Of a DNA stretch of 43,489 bases, positions 4,433 to 41,190 are shown in pieces. The notes under the pieces were generated by a model. The model was not told the origin of the DNA, did not search any database, and saw only the letters and a program-made list of their open reading frames with translations. Positions within the stretch are counted from its first letter, which is position 1; each line of letters begins with the position of its first letter. The DNA is taken from NCBI GenBank assembly GCA_031399805.1, contig JANNPG010000523.1, positions 1 through 43,489 on the forward strand. The letters are read 5' to 3'. Origin of the DNA: Betaproteobacteria bacterium (GTDB taxonomy: Bacteria; Pseudomonadota; Gammaproteobacteria; Burkholderiales; SG8-41). Both the position numbers and the translations under genes were made by a program.

Positions 4433-4877
4433 ACCCGCGCGCAGCCTGCGTTCGCGGGCGCTCGCACTGCTCGCGCGGCGCGAGTATTCGCGGCACGAGC
4501 TCGCGAAGAGGCTTGCCCCGTTCACCGAGAACCCCGCGGAAATACCCGAGCTGCTCGATGACTTCGAGCGCAGCGGGTGGCTGTCGGAGGCGCGCGTGGT
4601 CGAGCAGGTCGTTGCTTCGCGGCGCCGTCGGTTCGGCGCGAGCCGCATTTCGTTCGAACTGCGCGAGAAGGGCATATCGGAGTCGGCGATCGCCGGCGCG
4701 CAAGCGCAGCTGAAGGAAAGTGAGCTCGACGCCGCGCGCGCCGTGTGGCAACGTAAATTTGGCAAGCGGGCGGGCAGCGCCGCCGAACGCGCGCGCCAGA
4801 TCAGGTTTTTGCAGGGCCGCGGGTTTGCGCTTGAAACGGCGCTGCGGATTATTAAACATGCGGGGGATGACGATTAA
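4389..4877 (+). CDS. recX: RecA regulator RecX
   Basis: '[22 protein letters not shown]' and the repeated helical motifs are RecX-like, and the gene follows recA. The only plausible start is GTG 4389, 44 nt inside recA. There is no in-frame ATG. Confidence 0.85.
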
Positions 4878-18633: not shown

Positions 18634-21342
18634 TCAATTCCGCGGGGGCGCCGCCTCCAGCACGCCGGCCCACAATTTTTTGACGGCAGCGATTTCCTGC
18701 GCAAGCGTGCCGGCCTCGACGCGCGCGTATTTGTCGCCCTGCAGGCGCAGGGCATGCTGCAGCTGGCGCAAGCGCCGGTAGGCATCGTGCACCGCAAGGG
18801 CTGCGCTTTGCGCGATCAACCCGAGGTGTGCCGCGAGCTTGAGCAGGGCGAGGTTGCCGATGTTGCCGACGAGTTGCGGATACTGGTGGGAGTATCCCAG
18901 CACCAGGTATTGCACGATGAATTCAACGTCTATCAGTCCGCCGCGGTCATGCTTGATGTCGAATTCGCCGCTGGCATTGGGGTGCGCCGCCAGCATCTTC
19001 TCGCGCATGGCGACGACCTCGTCGCGCAACGCCGCCAGCGCGCGCGGGTTACGCAGCACCTCGCTGCGAATTTTTTCGAAGCTTAAGGCAATGCCGGCGT
19101 CGCCGGCGACGCAACGCGCGCGCGTCAGCGCCTGGTGCTCCCATACCCAGGCGTGCGCGCGCTGATAATCCGCAAATCCGTCGAGGGAGCTGACCAGCAG
19201 TCCGCTGGCGCCGTCCGGGCGCAGACGCAAGTCGGTTTCGTACAGCACCCCTGCCGCCGTCGTGCTCGTCATCCACTGATTAATGCGCTGGGCGAGGCGC
19301 GCATAATTTTCGGCCGCTTCGGGCGCTGCGTCATGGTAGACGAAAATCAGGTCCAGATCGGACGCGTAGCCGAGTTCTTTGCCGCCGAGTTTGCCGTACG
19401 CAATGATGGCGAAGCGCGGCTCGTCGCAATGGCGGGTGCGCACTGCGTGCCAGGTAACGCGCAGTACTTCCGACAGGATCAGATCGGCGAGATCGGAGAG
19501 GTGATCGGACAGTTTTTCCAGCGGCAGTTCGCCGGCGAGATCCTGCGCGAGCAAATGCAGGGTCTGGGCGTGCTTGAAGTGGCGTAACACGTCCATCTGG
19601 CGCTCGCTGTCCGCCACCGCCTCATCGAGCCGGTTGCGCAGCAGCGCCTTCAATTGCGCCCACACCGGCGGCGCGTGGAGCGTGCGCGCGTCCAGCAACT
19701 CGTCGAGCAGTATCGGGTAGCGTGCCAGATACTCCGCGGCCCACGGGCTGGCGCTGGCAAGTCGTGCGCCGCGTTCTATGGTTTGCGGATACTGCAAGAG
19801 GAGCGCGAGGTACGCTTCGCGCCGGCTGATGCTTTCAAGCAACGTCAGCATGCGTTCGAGCGTCGCATTCGGATTCGGCAGTTTGGCCGCGCTGTCGATG
19901 ACCAGTGGCACCAAATGTTCCATGCGTGCGTGGCTGGCCTGCGGCATCTGGCGCACGCGGCTGCTATTGCGCAACGCAAGGATCCGCTCGAGCGCGCGCT
20001 GCGGATCCGTGTAGCCCAGTTTGCGCAGCAATTCGAGCGGCGCGTCGAGTCCGTCACCGTGCCACAGCCCGGCGAGCGGATGGGCATGGTTTTCCGCTGT
20101 GGTGAAGATGCTCTCGAAGTGGCGCGTCACGTGCCCGCGATGAAGATCGAGTCGTGCGCGCAGCGCGCCGTAGGCGGGATAGCCCATCGCCGCTGCGATC
20201 AGCGCCTGGTCTGCCTCCGCGGCCGGCAAAGTCTGCGTTTGTTTGTCGTCGAGGTACTGCAGTCGATGCTCGAGATTGCGCAGGAACACGTAGGCGTCCG
20301 TGAGTTCCTGCACCGCGGCCGCCGGCAGGAGCTTGCGCGCGGCGAGCACGGGCAGCACGGCGAGCGTGGGAGGCTGGCGCAACTGGGGATCATGCCCGCC
20401 GCGAACGAGCTGAAACAATTGCGCGATGAATTCAATTTCGCGGATGCCGCCAGGCCCGAGTTTGATGTTGTCCAGAATGTCGCGGCGCTCGACCTCGCGC
20501 CGCACTTCGCGATGCAGCCCGCGCATGGATTCGAACGCGCTGTAGTCGAGATGGCGGCGAAACACGAACGGCCGTACCAAGTCGGCGAGTTCCTGCGCGC
20601 GGTCGCCGCACACCACGCGCGCCTTGATCCATGCATAGCGTTCCCATTCGCGGCCTTGCGTGATGAAATAGTTCTCGAGCATGCCGAAGCTCACCGCAAG
20701 GGGCCCGTCGCTGCCCAGCGGCCGCAGCCGCATATCGACGCGGAATACGAAGCCGTCTGCCGTCAATTCGTTGAGCAGAGCGATCAGCCGGCGCGCGAAG
20801 CGTATGAAATATTCATGATTGCTCAGCACGCGCGGGCCGCGGGTTTCGCCGTCTTCGGGATAGACGAAGACGAGATCGATGTCGGAGGATACGTTGAGTT
20901 CAGTCCCGCCAAGCTTGCCCATGCCGACGACATGCAATCGTTGCACGAGGCCGCCGTTTGCCGAGGTCGGCTCGCCGTATTCCAGCGCAAACTGGCGCTC
21001 GAGATGGGCGGTTGCGGTTGCAATGGCGATATCGGCGAGCGCTGTCACTGTGGCGATGACTTCGTCGAGCGTCGCGAGCCGGCCGAGGTCGCGCGCGATG
21101 ACGCGCAGCATTACGCGTTTGCGCAGGTCGCGCAGGGCACGCATCAGCGCGGCGTCGTCGCGGCTGTCCGCGGCGGCGAGCTGCGCGCGCATCTCGTCGG
21201 CGCCGAACGGCGAGGAAAGGCTCGTTGCGGGCAGCAGGTCCGGTTCCACATCGAGCAAGCGCCGCGCGTAGCGCGACAACTGCGCCGCCTGCCGGATTAG
21301 CGTGTCCGCGTTCGCCGCCGCGCGGGCGTTAGGTACACTCAT
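18634..21342 (-). CDS. glnE: Bifunctional glutamine synthetase adenylyltransferase / adenylyl-removing enzyme
   Basis: 902 aa with two nucleotidyltransferase modules ('GKLGGTELNVSSDIDLVFVY' and 'GKLGGKELGYASDLDLIFVY'). Confidence 0.95.
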   Translation of the reverse strand: MSVPNARAAANADTLIRQAAQLSRYARRLLDVEPDLLPATSLSSPFGADEMRAQLAAADSRDDAALMRALRDLRKRVMLRVIARDLGRLATLDEVIATVTALADIAIATATAHLERQFALEYGEPTSANGGLVQRLHVVGMGKLGGTELNVSSDIDLVFVYPEDGETRGPRVLSNHEYFIRFARRLIALLNELTADGFVFRVDMRLRPLGSDGPLAVSFGMLENYFITQGREWERYAWIKARVVCGDRAQELADLVRPFVFRRHLDYSAFESMRGLHREVRREVERRDILDNIKLGPGGIREIEFIAQLFQLVRGGHDPQLRQPPTLAVLPVLAARKLLPAAAVQELTDAYVFLRNLEHRLQYLDDKQTQTLPAAEADQALIAAAMGYPAYGALRARLDLHRGHVTRHFESIFTTAENHAHPLAGLWHGDGLDAPLELLRKLGYTDPQRALERILALRNSSRVRQMPQASHARMEHLVPLVIDSAAKLPNPNATLERMLTLLESISRREAYLALLLQYPQTIERGARLASASPWAAEYLARYPILLDELLDARTLHAPPVWAQLKALLRNRLDEAVADSERQMDVLRHFKHAQTLHLLAQDLAGELPLEKLSDHLSDLADLILSEVLRVTWHAVRTRHCDEPRFAIIAYGKLGGKELGYASDLDLIFVYHDAAPEAAENYARLAQRINQWMTSTTAAGVLYETDLRLRPDGASGLLVSSLDGFADYQRAHAWVWEHQALTRARCVAGDAGIALSFEKIRSEVLRNPRALAALRDEVVAMREKMLAAHPNASGEFDIKHDRGGLIDVEFIVQYLVLGYSHQYPQLVGNIGNLALLKLAAHLGLIAQSAALAVHDAYRRLRQLQHALRLQGDKYARVEAGTLAQEIAAVKKLWAGVLEAAPPRN

Positions 21343-21352
21343 GTCGTTCGGG

Positions 21353-21380
21353 TTACAATTGATTTAGAAATCATTATGTT
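21353..21380 (+). promoter_or_regulatory. Candidate sigma70 promoter (TTACAA, 16 nt, TATGTT) facing the structured element and the yhdP-like gene
   Basis: It sits in the AT-rich patch between the glnE start and the left inverted repeat. The predicted transcription start is near 21387, at the 5' end of the left repeat. Confidence 0.3.
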
Positions 21381-21382
21381 GC

Positions 21383-21933
21383 TAAGAGTCTGTCTCATCA
21401 ATATCCGCGTGGGCGACGGAGGTCATTTTCGCCCAGTTCTAGGAGAACGACTGCAGCAATATGTCAATATTGCAAAGGAGGCCGACACCGAAATGGGCGA
21501 AAATGGCCCCGTCCCGAAGGGTTGTCGCCAGGAAAGCCGGCGCACCGCAGCGTGGAGCAGGGATCGGCGCAACGCGGAGCAGGGGCCCCGCGTGCGGGGA
21601 TGCGACGGTGGAGCCGATCATGGGCGCGTACACGCCGATCCCTTTGCGCGTCTGCGGGGTCAGATCCCAGAGGGGACCCTCTTCCGCCCTCCGACGCGCC
21701 CCGCCGGCGGGGATGCGACCGCGCAGGTGCGTGTGAATCGCGTGCATCGGTGCGCCCATTGTCGCGCTGCGGGGTCGCATCCAAGCATAATGCGCTTGGA
21801 ACCTGCTCCGCCCTCCACGCGACGCAGCGTTGCTCGTCTTGGCAATAGAGTGACTATTGCCTTCACCGGGCGCCTTGCACTCGACTTTTCTGGCGACAAC
21901 GCATCACGTGGATATTGATGAGACAGGCTCTGA
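21383..21933 (+). other. GC-rich non-coding element closed by 29-nt inverted repeats, with nested helices. It is a candidate structured RNA or leader; a MITE is the alternative.
   Basis: The outer helix 21383-21411 / 21905-21933 has 26 Watson-Crick pairs, 2 G-U pairs and 1 mismatch. Nested helices are 21421-21434/21495-21508, 21456-21462/21467-21473, 21521-21530/21891-21900 (perfect 10 bp), 21552-21561/21802-21811, 21562-21569/21633-21640, 21711-21726/21767-21782 and 21841-21848/21854-21861. The ORFs inside are Arg/Gly/Pro-rich junk. Confidence 0.5.
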
Positions 21934-21957
21934 ATTCTATGACTTTTCACTCCAATC

Positions 21958-24900
21958 GTGCCCGCCATTTCCATTTTTAAGTGGCTGCATGTCAGCACAC
22001 TCCGGGTTTACCGTGCGATAACCTGGGCAGTGCTGGCGTGCGCATTCGTGTTCGCGCTCGCCATCGTCGGGGTCCGGTTCTGGCTGCTGCCGAATATGGA
22101 GAGCTACCGCGAGCCGATCGAGCGCGAACTGAGCGAGGCGATCAAACAGCGCATTACGATCGGCAAGCTCGACGGGCGCTGGAGCGGGCTTAACCTTCAG
22201 TTGACGCTGGGAGACGTCGTCGTTTTCGACCGCGCCGACCAGCCGGCGCTCAAACTTGCGCGCGTCGACAGCACGCTGTCGTGGTGGTCGCTCATACTTT
22301 GGGAGCCGCGTTTCGATTCGATAGAGATTGAACGGCCGGATCTCAACATCAAGCGCAATACGCGCGGCATTGTGTCAGTCGCCGGTATCGAATTGAGCGA
22401 TAGTGCCGATGGCGGCGGCCTGTCTGACTGGTTGTTGCGGCAGGAAGTGATCGGCATTCGTGGCGCCGCGATTACCTGGCACGACGAGATGCGCGGCGCA
22501 CCGAAGCTGGCGCTGCAGGACGTTGATTTTCGCCTTGAGAACGACGGCCGGCAGCACCGCTTCGGTCTGCGCGCAGTGCCCCCAGCGTCGCTCGCCACCC
22601 CGCTCGACGTGCGCGGTGAATTTACCGGCCGGACGGTGACCGATCTCACGCAATGGAACGGTCAGCTGTTCGCGCAACTCGAATACACGAATATCGCCGC
22701 GTGGCGCACATGGGTACCGTTCCCGGTTTATTTTCCGCACGGCGCGGGGGCCGTGCGCATGTGGGTCGGCCTGAAAAAAGGCGAGCTTGCCGACATCAAG
22801 GCCGACGTGCAGTTGTCGCAGGTCAAGACGCGCCTCGGCAAGGAGCTGCCTGAGCTCGATCTCGAAGCGCTCAAGGGACGCGTGGGATGGAAGCTGCTCA
22901 ACGATGGATTCGAAGTGTCGACCACCAGGCTCAGCATGTCGACGCGCAGCTATACGCTGCAGCCGACTGATTTTTTCCTGCGCTATCATCACGCCAGCAA
23001 TGGGCGACCGCCGCGCGGGGAAATGCAGGCCACGGCGCTTGATATCGAGCCGCTCGTGGCGCTCGCCGATCATCTGCCGTTCGAACCGGAACTGCGCAAG
23101 GAACTCGAGAGCTACGCGCCGCGCGGCAGCTTATATGACGTGGCGGTGAAGTGGGCCGGGACGTGGCCGCGGCCGCAGCAATACGGCGTCAAGGCGAGAT
23201 TCGTCAATCTCGGGTTGAATCCGGTGGGCCGGTTGCCGGGGTTTGGCGGCGTCAGCGGCAGTGTCGACGGCAGCGAGCGCGGCGGCACGCTCTTTCTCAA
23301 TACGCAGAATGCGGCAGTCGAACTGCCGCTTGTTTTTCGTGAGAAGCTCGTGTTCGACACGCTCACCGCACAGGCCGGCTGGCAGCGCAACGGCGAACAA
23401 TACGATATCCGGCTCAAAGATATTTCGTTTTCCAACCGGGATCTCGCGGGCAGTGTATCGGGGGCCTATCAAACTGCCGCCGACGGTCAAGGCGTGATCG
23501 ATCTGACAGGCAATGCGACGCGCGCCGATGCGCGCAGTGTCGGGCGCTATATTCCGTTACGCATCGGCGAGCGCGGCCGGCAGTGGATGGAAAATGCGTT
23601 TCTGGGCGGCACCTCGAACGATGTGAAACTCCGGTTGAAGGGCAAATTGAATGGCTTTCCGTTCCCCGAGGGCAAAGGCGGCTTGTTCCAGGTGACCGCG
23701 CGCGTAACCGATGGTGTGCTCGATTACGCCAACGGCTGGCCGAAAATCGACAATATCGACGGCGATCTTACTTTTCGCGGCCGGCGCATGGATGTGCTCG
23801 TGCGCGACGCGTCGATTCTGGGCGTGAAGCTCGCGCGCGTGCGCGCGGAAATTCCGGACGTCGTCATCGCGGACCGCATGCTGACGGTAAGCGGAGAGGC
23901 CGAGGGTCCGACCGGCGAGTTTCTGAGCTTCATCGGCCGCAGTCCGCTGCTCGAAACGACTGACCATTTTACCGACAGCGTGCGCGCGGAAGGCCGCGGC
24001 AAGCTGGCGTTGAAGCTCGGCATTCCGATCAGCAATATCAAGGAGACCAGGGTCGCGGGAGCTTACCAGTTCCTCGACAACAGGATCGAGAGCGACGAGG
24101 TGTTTTTTCCGTTCGAGCAGGTCAACGCACGCATGGAGTTCACCGAATCGAGCGTTCGGGTGCCGGCGGCGACCATGACGATACTGGGCGGACCGGCAAC
24201 GCTCTCCGGCGGCACCCAGCGCGAGGGTGGCGTGCGTATGAACCTCGCCGGGCGCGTCAATATGGACAATTTTCGCCGCTCGACCAGTTCCCCGTTGGCA
24301 CAGGGATTACGCGGATCGACGGACTGGAAAACCACGGTGAATTTGCACAAACGTCTTGCCGACGTTGTGTTTGAATCGGCGATGCAGGGTATGGTTTCGG
24401 ATCTGCCGGCGCCGCTCGCCAAGAGCGCGGCCGACAGCCTGCCGCTTAAAATTGAGCGGCAAGTCACAAGTGCACAGCAGGACCGTATCATCTTGACGCT
24501 CGGTAATGTGGTGTCCGCGCAACTGCTACGGCGGATGGACGGCAGGCTGTCCGTTATCGAGCGCGGTACCATCAATCTCGGCGGCAACGCAGCGGAGCCA
24601 GAGCGCAAAGGGATTTGGATCAGCGGCGGGTTGAAGAGCCTCGATCTTGATCAGTGGCTGGCATTACTTAAAGCCGGTATCGGTGACGGCGGGCGGACAC
24701 AGCTTGCGGGACTGGACGTAAAATTCGGCGCCCTGGACGCGTTCGGCCGCCGCTTCAACGACCTTGCGATCAGCGGCAGCGCGCAGGCGGGCGTGTGGCA
24801 AACCACGCTGATCGGTCGCGAACTCGTCGGCGAGGTGACGTGGCGGTCGCAAGGCAAGGGTAAAGTCACCGCGCGCATGAAAAACCTGGTCATTCCGGCG

Positions 24901-25806
24901 GCAACGCCGGATCGTGCGCCGGTTGCGGCGGACAAAGGCAAAGAGCAGCCGCTCGAGTTGCCGGCACTCGATATTTATGCCGATAACTTTCAACTCCGGC
25001 AATTGAGCCTCGGCAAGCTCGAAGTCACCGCGGTTCCCGACGGGCGCGACTGGAAACTCGAACGACTGCATATTACCAATCCGGACGCGACACTGACTGT
25101 GGAAGGCGTGTGGCAAGGCTGGCTGACGCAGCCGCGCACGATGGTTAATGTCCGCCTCGACGTCAACGATATCGGCAAGCTGCTGGTGAGGCTCGGCCAG
25201 CCCGAGGGCGTCAAACGCGGCACGGCCAAGCTCGAAGGACCGCTGTCATGGGCCGGCAATCCGAGCGAGCTTGATTATGCGACACTGTCAGGCAATTTTG
25301 TCCTCGAAGCGAACAAGGGACAGTTCGTCAAGCTCGACCCCGGCATCGGCAAGCTGTTGGGCGTGTTAAGCCTGCAGTCGTTGCCGCGGCGGCTCTCGCT
25401 CGATTTTCGCGACATTTTCAGCGACGGGCTGGCCTTCGATGAAATCGTCAGCACGGTCAAGGTCAACCGCGGCATCGCCAACACCGAAAATTTCCGTATC
25501 CAGGGGCCGGCCGTGCGCATCCAGATGAGCGGGGATGTCGATCTGGCGCGGGAAACACAAAAATTGCGCGTCAAGGTATATCCCAGCATGAGCGACAGCC
25601 TGTCGGTGGCCGGTGCGCTGATCGGCGGTCCCATCGCGGGCATTGCCACGTTTCTCGCGCAAAAGCTGCTCAAGGACCCGATCGACAAGTTCGCCGCCTA
25701 TGAATACGACGTCACCGGAACCTGGGCTGACCCGCAGGTGTCGAAAGTCGAGTCTGCGCAGTCGAAAGAGGACTACATTCCGGCAGGCACGGGGAGATCG
25801 GATTGA
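21958..25806 (+). CDS. YhdP-family (AsmA-like, TIGR02099-type) large envelope protein
   Basis: 1282 aa with an N-terminal TM helix ('ITWAVLACAFVFALAIVGVRFWLLPNMESYR'). The body is long and beta-rich, and the C-terminus has an amphipathic segment. It is adjacent to tldD, as yhdP is in E. coli. GTG 21958 is the first start in the open frame. Confidence 0.8.
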   Translation: MPAISIFKWLHVSTLRVYRAITWAVLACAFVFALAIVGVRFWLLPNMESYREPIERELSEAIKQRITIGKLDGRWSGLNLQLTLGDVVVFDRADQPALKLARVDSTLSWWSLILWEPRFDSIEIERPDLNIKRNTRGIVSVAGIELSDSADGGGLSDWLLRQEVIGIRGAAITWHDEMRGAPKLALQDVDFRLENDGRQHRFGLRAVPPASLATPLDVRGEFTGRTVTDLTQWNGQLFAQLEYTNIAAWRTWVPFPVYFPHGAGAVRMWVGLKKGELADIKADVQLSQVKTRLGKELPELDLEALKGRVGWKLLNDGFEVSTTRLSMSTRSYTLQPTDFFLRYHHASNGRPPRGEMQATALDIEPLVALADHLPFEPELRKELESYAPRGSLYDVAVKWAGTWPRPQQYGVKARFVNLGLNPVGRLPGFGGVSGSVDGSERGGTLFLNTQNAAVELPLVFREKLVFDTLTAQAGWQRNGEQYDIRLKDISFSNRDLAGSVSGAYQTAADGQGVIDLTGNATRADARSVGRYIPLRIGERGRQWMENAFLGGTSNDVKLRLKGKLNGFPFPEGKGGLFQVTARVTDGVLDYANGWPKIDNIDGDLTFRGRRMDVLVRDASILGVKLARVRAEIPDVVIADRMLTVSGEAEGPTGEFLSFIGRSPLLETTDHFTDSVRAEGRGKLALKLGIPISNIKETRVAGAYQFLDNRIESDEVFFPFEQVNARMEFTESSVRVPAATMTILGGPATLSGGTQREGGVRMNLAGRVNMDNFRRSTSSPLAQGLRGSTDWKTTVNLHKRLADVVFESAMQGMVSDLPAPLAKSAADSLPLKIERQVTSAQQDRIILTLGNVVSAQLLRRMDGRLSVIERGTINLGGNAAEPERKGIWISGGLKSLDLDQWLALLKAGIGDGGRTQLAGLDVKFGALDAFGRRFNDLAISGSAQAGVWQTTLIGRELVGEVTWRSQGKGKVTARMKNLVIPAATPDRAPVAADKGKEQPLELPALDIYADNFQLRQLSLGKLEVTAVPDGRDWKLERLHITNPDATLTVEGVWQGWLTQPRTMVNVRLDVNDIGKLLVRLGQPEGVKRGTAKLEGPLSWAGNPSELDYATLSGNFVLEANKGQFVKLDPGIGKLLGVLSLQSLPRRLSLDFRDIFSDGLAFDEIVSTVKVNRGIANTENFRIQGPAVRIQMSGDVDLARETQKLRVKVYPSMSDSLSVAGALIGGPIAGIATFLAQKLLKDPIDKFAAYEYDVTGTWADPQVSKVESAQSKEDYIPAGTGRSD

Positions 25807-28336: not shown

Positions 28337-28350
28337 GAATATATTGAAAA

Positions 28351-28532
28351 CGCCGATAGACGCCGATGAAAGCCGATAAGATCACAGAAAAAGCCTTAGC
28401 CACAGATGGCATGGCTAACACGAAGACACGAAGACAACACGAAGACTCCTAACTATTGTCTCTATTGCCCCAATGTTTTTTGCGGCAAGGGAAACGTAGT
28501 TTTCTATCCGCGTTCATCGGCGTTTATCGGCG
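28351..28532. repeat. Intergenic element: inverted triple 10-mer arrays flanking a ~120-bp core
   Basis: The left arm is cgccgataga cgccgatgaa agccgataag (28351-28380). The right arm is ttctatccgcg ttcatcggcg tttatcggcg (28502-28532). The two distal units pair 9/10 and 10/10. The core holds the hairpin TTAGCCA-9 nt-TGGCTAA (28396-28418) and three near-tandem CACGAAGA units (28420-28445; the first two are contiguous and the third follows a 2-nt gap). Confidence 0.8.
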
Positions 28533-28565
28533 GTTAACTGATAGCCCTTTTTGTTTGGCACGCAA

Positions 28566-41138: not shown

Positions 41139-41190
41139 AGAGTGCCTGACATTATGCAACGCACACGTGTTTCATTGTGTTAGGCACTCT
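41139..41190. promoter_or_regulatory. 13-bp stem hairpin whose loop carries an ACACGTGT palindrome, in the divergent nth / GGDEF control region
   Basis: AGAGTGCCTGACA (41139-41151) pairs with TGTTAGGCACTCT (41178-41190): 12 Watson-Crick pairs and 1 G-U. The loop contains acacgtgt at 41162-41169. Confidence 0.4.

Follow-up and report, generated by a model that had tools for sequence, protein, structure and literature searches.

The glnE-yhdP spacer and its insertion

The DNA analysed here (the window) is a stretch of 43,489 nucleotides (nt), positions 1-43,489 of contig JANNPG010000523.1, from a Betaproteobacteria bacterium (assembly GCA_031399805.1), and the subject of this study is the spacer between two divergent genes in it, glnE (18634-21342, minus strand) and a gene of the YhdP family (21958-25806, plus strand; hereafter yhdP). 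Both genes were confirmed by Pfam, and the spacer measures 615 nt. A first-pass annotation made from the sequence alone had called this spacer unusually long and had described in it a GC-rich non-coding element with nested helices, closed by 29-nt inverted repeats, for which three readings were offered: a structured leader of yhdP, an independent large non-coding RNA (ncRNA), or a non-autonomous mobile element. We find that the spacer is a normal glnE-yhdP spacer of about 64 nt into which a non-coding mobile repeat has been inserted.

The evidence for an insertion comes from the empty sites of relatives. Homologues of TldD were used as handles to collect the same chromosomal region from relatives, and in 19 related contigs (given here by L numbers) the spacer is only 64-88 nt long. 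Sixteen contigs have a spacer of 64 nt with the junction ...TTACAATTGGTTTAGAAATCATTATGTTGC^ATTTTATGG... (^ marks the point of insertion in the window); 15 of them are identical, reading ...ATGTTGC^ATTTTATGG, and L047 has one downstream substitution outside the quoted stretch. The 64-nt spacer of L029 was read in sequence, and that of L030 is put at 64 nt because its gene calls for glnE and yhdP lie the same distance apart as those of L029, its spacer sequence not having been read. L026 has 68 nt, with the junction ...ATGTTGC-CGGT-ATTCTATG and flanks otherwise identical to those of the window, and L033 has 88 nt, with 24 extra nt at the same junction. These orthologous spacers of 64, 68 and 88 nt bear out that the window's spacer is unusually long. 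The window itself reads ...ATGTTGC[TAAGAG...CTCTGA]ATTCTATG, and among the relatives compared only L025 shares the long form in this spacer (615 nt, with 99.7% identity to the window over 6.4 kb). Comparison of the filled and empty junctions therefore identifies the element as an insertion of 551 nt without duplicated target bases.

At the window's junction (TTGC^ATT), L026 has CGGT at its positions 4858-4861 and L033 has its 24 nt (TTGTATTTTATGCGTCTTGCTCGA) at positions 4800-4823. These extra nucleotides could be footprints left by excision, or indels that arose independently at an unstable site close to the promoter.

The element is a nested hairpin (Table 1). Terminal repeats of 27-29 nt (P1) close the junction of two arms, P2 and P3, forming a shell of 266 nt, and a GC-rich core module lies in an internal loop of P3; the 266-nt shell also circulates alone, without the core. 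A repeat finder gives terminal arms of 27 nt with 93% complementarity, and a hand count over 29 nt (21383-21411 with 21905-21933) gives 26 Watson-Crick pairs, 2 G-U pairs and 1 A-G mismatch, the same counts as originally reported. The 21-nt core of the arm matches only the two arms in the window (shuffle expectation 0.00), and the arms (AGAGYCTGTCTCATCAATATCC...) are not palindromic in themselves. From AGAG to CTCT the long form measures 547 nt (21385-21931), to which are added 2 junction nt per side that are missing from the empty sites. The remaining helices of the first-pass annotation were also all found: besides the P2 hairpin and the P3 base, these are 21549-21561/21802-21814, 21559-21569/21633-21643 (perfect) and 21711-21726/21767-21782 (15 of 16 positions), and the hairpins at 21456-21473 and 21841-21861 belong to the minimum-free-energy fold. 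The core contains a degenerate internal duplication of about 113 nt and is bordered on both sides by the direct heptamer GCAGCGT. The duplication had been proposed as a tandem one of about 112 nt; pieces of 16-29 nt with 83-88% identity do recur at a spacing of 113-124 nt, but Tandem Repeats Finder does not report it.

Table 1. Parts of the inserted element and related features of the window
Feature	Positions	Strand	Basis or remark
Whole inserted element, long form	21383..21933	+	Comparison with empty sites
Left terminal inverted repeat, P1 5' arm	21385..21411	+	Common to all type I copies
Right terminal inverted repeat, P1 3' arm	21905..21931	+	Repeat finder
Arm P2	21412..21515	+	Hairpin 21421-21439/21490-21508, tip 21456-21473, then a small CCC-GAA-GGG hairpin
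P3 base, 5' side	21516..21539	+	Pairs with 21882-21905; compensatory changes also in L005b
GC-rich core module, about 285 nt	21540..21824	+	Missing from the 266-nt short forms (alignment)
P3 tip, including hairpin 21841-21861	21825..21881	+	Best-conserved shell part across both subfamilies; present in the diverged paralogue L005b
P3 base, 3' side	21882..21904	+	Repeat finder
Native promoter-like site TTACAA-16-TATGTT	21353..21380	+	Kept in the 64- and 68-nt empty spacers; outside the element
Repeat-only family member, type II terminal repeats	41139..41190	.	37-nt match to the end of L005b

Copies elsewhere, a second subfamily and movement

Copies were sought by scanning one genome per species and the JGI metagenomes for the repeat core, followed by blastn and comparison of the flanks. 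The short form, which lacks the equivalent of window positions 21540-21824, is 266 nt long and occurs with about 95% identity in at least four contexts besides the window's. In L005 and L007 it occupies the glnE-yhdP spacer at the same nucleotide position as the window's element. Four other contigs (L001 and L008-L010) carry it in the divergent spacer between genes for a CDP-alcohol phosphatidyltransferase and an Asp/Glu racemase, and in L006 (560-825) and L002 it lies between phd and parE, the genes for a Phd/YefM antitoxin and a ParE toxin. It also interrupts a HigB/RelE-like toxin gene (...ELRID^element^GPGYRVYF...) in L058 (313-579), L059 (385-651) and L060 (450-715), and a repeat-only version, 50 nt with the repeats back to back, lies at L003 7547-7596 inside a toxin gene homologous to that one. 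Orientation relative to the local genes is not fixed, L005b (the type II copy described below) and the toxin-gene copies, L058 among them, being antisense and the phd-parE copy of L006 sense. The short forms differ from each other pairwise at 9-17 of 266 positions in a star-like pattern, and short forms at orthologous positions are no more alike than those at different loci.

A profile search turned up no additional diverged copies in 0.7 Mb of related loci. Scans of viral contigs yielded nothing or 13 isolated matches of 17 nt, which were taken as chance (one match per contig) and not inspected. Two candidates, L004 (in a coding region) and L011, were discarded as chance matches of the repeat pattern.

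A second subfamily (type II, the window's being type I) was reached through a 106-amino-acid (aa) open reading frame (ORF) on the opposite strand, gene-called in L025. Used as bait, this single ORF retrieved "proteins" that led to contigs with type II long forms; a chimeric six-frame translation used as protein query retrieved nothing, probably being swamped by low-complexity candidates. The type II long forms in L056 and L057 are exactly 547 nt long, like the window copy, and those in L054 (184-858) and L055 (47-720) are longer, at 675 and 674 nt, because arm P2 holds an additional insert of about 128 nt. This third-level insert indicates, as far as sequence comparison goes, that the family nests modules at at least two fixed internal points, the core in P3 and the insert of about 128 nt in P2. 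Distinct contexts number at least five for type I and at least five for type II.

The two subfamilies have diverged unevenly. Between type I (window) and type II, identity is 57-68% in the shell, 90.2-91.5% in the core and 76-91% in the P3 tip (element positions 443-500); among type II copies, core and shell similarity are about equal. Both subfamilies occur with and without the core, with identical borders, and the short forms have 3-4 other bases (ATT, CTAT) in its place. We infer that the core is either a module that inserts separately at a fixed point of P3 or one that is recurrently lost between the GCAGCGT repeats, and both readings fit. When a 180-aa ORF that spans the whole element (21376-21918) was compared with 1.84 billion representative proteins, it gave 41 matches, in which one ORF may contain the core motif several times and linked to different ends. 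These translations suggest that core-like modules may also occur in multiples elsewhere.

The window holds one more trace of the family. A 52-nt palindrome at 41139-41190 (arms 41139-41160 and 41169-41190, 82% complementary; AGAGTGCCTGACATTATGCAAC...GTTTCATTGTGTTAGGCACTCT) has the same architecture as the repeat-only copy of L003. Its neighbours are the start of a gene that is probably of endonuclease III type (minus strand; placed from the gene calls of L044, the ORF not having been scanned) and a GGDEF gene.

Several comparisons bear on movement. Window and L005 are 75-78% identical in the glnE and yhdP flanks and 95-97% identical in the element; for L006 and L002 the corresponding values are 76-89% and 96%. 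A type II copy (L005b) occupies the tldD-greB spacer of L005, and L007, which is 99.42% identical to L005 over 7,779 ungapped nt, is empty at that site. In a neighbour-joining (NJ) tree of the yhdP-tldD segment, the two lineages filled at glnE-yhdP, window/L025 and L005/L007, lie farther apart (75%) than any other pair, and each has an empty-site sister, L026 (84%) and L033 (81.5%) respectively. Either the same nucleotide was therefore hit by two independent insertions, or the element was precisely lost at least three times. Because the copies are 95% identical, we favour independent and fairly recent insertions with a strong site preference as the probable history. Of the three readings first offered, the mobile element is the one supported, by the empty spacers, the copies of about 95% identity elsewhere and the presence and absence of a family member between strains of 99.4% identity, and the leader and ncRNA readings fall. 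The first-pass annotation had named as a refutation the finding of many near-identical copies scattered over unrelated loci between direct duplications; such copies were found, but no consistent duplication at their flanks, as described in the next section.

Some observations on the target loci stand apart. Toxin-antitoxin loci have been hit repeatedly, with a short form inside a toxin gene, a repeat-only copy in a homologous toxin gene and a short form between phd and parE. The window has a PIN-domain (VapC-like) ORF at 2128-2568 that follows a 90-aa ORF at 1859-2131; the two are probably another toxin-antitoxin pair, and no copy of the element adjoins them. The tldD-greB spacer of the window (28337-28550) holds a small unrelated element with 31-nt inverted repeats (28348-28378 and 28505-28535) that consist of CGCCGAT-like motifs, and this element, 28348-28535, is the only other clear repeat-bounded one in the window. 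In relatives the same spacer varies from 61 to 337 nt, with a related element in L026, the type II copy in L005 and nothing in L007. It looks like a hot spot for small insertions.

Fold and junctions

The element folds far more stably than expected by chance. As RNA, the 551-nt segment reaches -313.9 kcal/mol on the plus strand (z = -12.2 against shuffles) and -291.8 kcal/mol on the minus strand (z = -8.6), and under DNA parameters the whole element has z = -11.0. The GC-rich core alone reaches only z = -2.9 on the plus and -2.7 on the minus strand, so the excess stability comes mostly from the outer part. An alignment of five long forms gave an RNAalifold consensus of 205 pairs, and an independent count found 96.4% of the cells in these pairs to be paired. 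Changes on both sides of a pair occur in 27 pairs, compared with 8.4 +/- 2.3 in shuffles (none of 500 reached 27) and 0-7 with slid partners. Nearly all of them belong to helices of the shell, with 14 of 29 pairs in P1, 6 of 22 in P2 and 3 of 17 in the P3 base, and over the arm P2 region, helices 2-4 of the pair count, 9 pairs have changed on both sides. Those in P1 arise between type I and type II. The core has a single covarying pair and is nearly invariant among the five long forms, and it is therefore uninformative for covariation. The fold is thus kept by compensatory changes between the two subfamilies.

The first-pass annotation had argued from its G-U pairs for selection on a plus-strand RNA fold. 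The compensatory changes and the somewhat better folding of the plus strand agree with this, but a dedicated yhdP leader is not supported, the element being an insertion that occurs in both orientations. An RNA or single-stranded DNA intermediate is possible, with the plus strand folding somewhat better. Though real, the strand bias is modest, and the copies that show it are related; a single-stranded intermediate of one polarity would account for it but is not proven by it.

The junctions point to insertion without target duplication. The bases adjoining GAG...CTC are an invariant A on the left and an invariant T on the right, and they therefore behave as part of the repeat. Beyond them, the next two bases differ between the sides in 11 of 12 pairs, and neither of the two empty/filled comparisons shows duplicated target bases. 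Duplication of TA (as in IS630-like elements) or of 2 nt was rejected, a match being found in only 1 of 12 pairs. All five long forms have TNA on both sides (window TAA/TGA, L054 TAA/TTA, L055 TAA/TAA, L056 TTA/TTA, L057 TTA/TTA). The two triplets are identical in three of the five, which is the chance level with N mostly A or T. Among the short and repeat-only copies the triplets match in none of seven pairs (CTA/TTA, CGA/TAA, TCA/TAC, CTA/TGG, CTG/TGA, CTA/TAT, CAA/TAA). The empty-site junctions, TTGC^ATTT and TTGC-CGGT-ATTC, lack TNA, and the filled junction of the L005/L007 pair contains one T more than a TTA duplication would leave. We therefore treat the family as one without target duplication.

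Nature of the element

Taken together, we consider it about 80% probable that this is a nested, non-autonomous, hairpin-forming mobile element, similar to miniature inverted-repeat transposable elements (MITEs) and REPINs, which belongs to no named family and now forms a structured leader of yhdP. Its copies would be moved in trans by an enzyme encoded elsewhere, which may recognise the folded ends. A single-stranded route like that of IS200 or REPINs would be somewhat likelier than classical DDE cut-and-paste, since duplications are lacking, the hairpin spans the whole length and there is a mild strand bias. As far as we searched, the family is undescribed in Rfam 15 and in the literature on such repeats.

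Several known systems offer parallels. Bacterial MITEs that fold into whole-length hairpins include Correia/NEMIS, ERIC, Nezha and Chunjie (reviewed by Delihas 2011, PMC3184786). Like these, the present family is non-coding, has terminal inverted repeats, no transposase gene and a very stable stem-loop, is dispersed between and sometimes within genes with filled and empty orthologous sites, and can join neighbouring transcripts. Unlike them, it has no consistent target-site duplication, has yielded no matching insertion sequence (IS) in the searches described below, reaches 547 nt where less than 200-400 nt is usual, is branched and nested at three levels rather than a single palindrome, and fills the same position in separate lineages. 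REPINs are elements of about 100 nt in which two REPs, short GC-rich palindromes, stand in inverted orientation; they are mobilised by RAYTs, Y1 transposases related to IS200/IS605, and an asymmetric single-stranded intermediate is proposed for them (Bertels and Rainey 2011, PMC3116915). The family shares with REPINs the non-autonomous hairpin repeats without target duplication, the proposal of such an intermediate, the orthologous positions in relatives and the repeat-only remnants, but differs in its non-palindromic arms of 27-29 nt around 210-620 nt of conserved branched sequence. No RAYT was seen in the 43-kb window. The Betaproteobacterial repeat element (BRE), of about 90 nt and flanked by T-tracts, reads GGCCGCGGGCCGCCCAAGGC... 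(Hot et al. 2011, PMC3110155). It too is a GC-rich betaproteobacterial repeat, occurring in tandem with variable number in spacers and ORFs, and the read-through translations suggest that the core module may likewise occur in multiples. However, BRE has no enclosing inverted repeats and its sequence is unrelated. We also considered BRE as the source of the GC-rich unit and rejected it: the core motifs GGGATGCG and CCGCCCTCC are absent from the listed BRE sequences, and the BREs shown look unrelated.

Some of our results weigh against a mobile element of this kind. Of the window's ORFs that were scanned, none proved to be a transposase, a RAYT or of IS110 type, and the genome and metagenome scans, which required exact matches of 20-22 nt, found no gene enclosed by the repeat pair. 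When the whole region and the two repeat types were compared with plasmids by BLAST, the matches did not exceed chance level. Across the genome and metagenome scans, with their exact 20-22-nt matches, the plasmid searches and the window, no IS sharing the terminal repeats was found. Classical MITEs have target-site duplications, but here no duplication of 2-9 nt is consistent over the 13 junction pairs examined, and the copies were read at single loci rather than counted across whole genomes. The orthologous copies at glnE-yhdP and phd-parE, with 95-96% identity in the element over 76-89% in the flanks, could also reflect purifying selection on a functional sequence. A functional RNA would be expected to show two further features that we observed: the core and P3 tip are far better conserved than the covarying shell, and the plus strand folds at least as well as the minus strand in all 10 copies, the consensus folds reaching -270 and -251 kcal/mol respectively.

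A classical DDE MITE derived from an IS1031-type element is the alternative to which we give most room, though we regard it as rather improbable. The IS1031 group belongs to the IS5 family; its ends read GAG and it makes a 3-bp TNA duplication. The A and T beside GAG...CTC and the flanking T..A would then be decayed TNA duplications. All copies do end in GAG...CTC, their terminal repeats of 27-29 nt are of typical length, and the five long forms have TNA flanks on both sides, identical in three. That number is the chance level, however, and no short or repeat-only pair (0 of 7) matches. The A and T are invariant and behave like the repeat, the flanking duplications are mostly non-identical and are absent from the empty sites, an extra T stands at the L005/L007 site, and no partner IS with such ends was found in the genome, metagenome and plasmid searches.

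We think it unlikely that the element is instead a mobile gene that specifies a structured, functional RNA or single-stranded DNA, in which the core and P3 tip would be the active part (a guide, ribozyme or protein-binding scaffold) and the shell scaffolding. The RNA or DNA would itself take part in site-specific insertion, which would give same-position hits without duplication. This explanation accords with the conservation of the core (about 90%) and P3 tip (76-91%) over that of the shell (57-68%), the shell helices kept by 27 pairs that changed on both sides, and the 547-nt long forms in both subfamilies. It accords also with the preference for the plus strand in all 10 copies (by about 20 kcal/mol in the consensus, with 88 G-U cells as against 51 on the minus strand) and with the filling of one site, without target duplication, in lineages separated by empty-site relatives. 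However, the core-less short form is the more widely dispersed and most uniform one, so spread does not require the core in cis. Some copies are sense and others antisense to local transcription, and no promoter or terminator of the element's own was found. The core fold is marginal against shuffles (z about -2.9), with one covarying pair, the strand bias is modest, with many wobble positions on both strands, and no Rfam ribozyme or guide RNA matches. Equally doubtful, in our judgement, is that the family represents a new class of mobile element, with site-specific, duplication-free insertion via folded single-stranded RNA or DNA, a functional core and P3 tip, and modules nesting at fixed sites (the core in P3, and the third module in P2 of L054 and L055).

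It is very improbable that the element evolved on the spot to control yhdP, be it as a riboswitch-like cis-regulatory leader specific to this locus or as a unique gene for a large ncRNA. The element does sit between a promoter-like site and the yhdP start, its fold is very stable, and no Shine-Dalgarno sequence precedes the GTG. Yet 19 related contigs have retained yhdP and the promoter-like site but lack the element in the spacer, and the same sequence lies upstream of, between or inside unrelated genes without a fixed orientation. In line with the first-pass annotation, it matches no known RNA family: Rfam release 15 gave nothing at the gathering score in the window, a permissive scan of the element region and one short form gave only chance-level matches (E = 0.7-10), and five other copies gave nothing at E <= 1. 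We can practically dismiss a protein-coding gene, as the open frame of the 180-aa ORF (with its 41 database "proteins") and the opposite-strand 106-aa ORF (gene-called in L025, with 8 matches) are set against the lack of a Pfam match for the former and of codon periodicity in the core (variable sites 17/18/13 by phase), in agreement with the first-pass annotation, and against matching "proteins" that are read-throughs of other copies in varying frames, beginning at an ATG within a type II repeat or joined to a truncated toxin. A 24-aa ORF of the short form, preceded by AAGGAGG, was rejected as coding because neither the ORF nor the Shine-Dalgarno sequence is kept in L005b.

The mobile element sits 2-4 nt downstream of TATGTT, the -10-like part of the promoter-like site. 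That site, TTACAA-16-TATGTT, is present as first described but fails the criteria of a promoter scan, and it belongs to the native spacer, not to the element. As the first-pass annotation had it, a transcript from this upstream site would begin at the left repeat; the yhdP transcript would then carry a very stable leader of about 575 nt, whose closing helix would end 24 nt before the GTG and leave the start region free. On the minus strand, window positions 21373-21401 form a hybrid promoter-like site towards glnE, by consensus match only, with a -35-like TTGATG in the left repeat and a -10-like CATAAT in the flank.

With these results, annotation can avoid listing the spacer as a riboswitch-like leader, or as a newly found large ncRNA, of an envelope lipid-transport gene. 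Several features that seldom coincide are combined in this family: the terminal repeats are long and no target duplication accompanies them; the fold is branched and maintained by compensatory change; modules nest at fixed internal points; a length of exactly 547 nt is kept across subfamilies despite about 35% divergence of the shell; one nucleotide position is filled repeatedly, in separate lineages; and toxin-antitoxin loci are hit again and again. At glnE-yhdP, the insertion would turn a yhdP leader of about 25 nt into a hairpin-rich one of about 575 nt, a natural experiment in promoter-proximal insertion between divergent genes. The mobilising enzyme, if found, could reveal a structure-guided mechanism of insertion.

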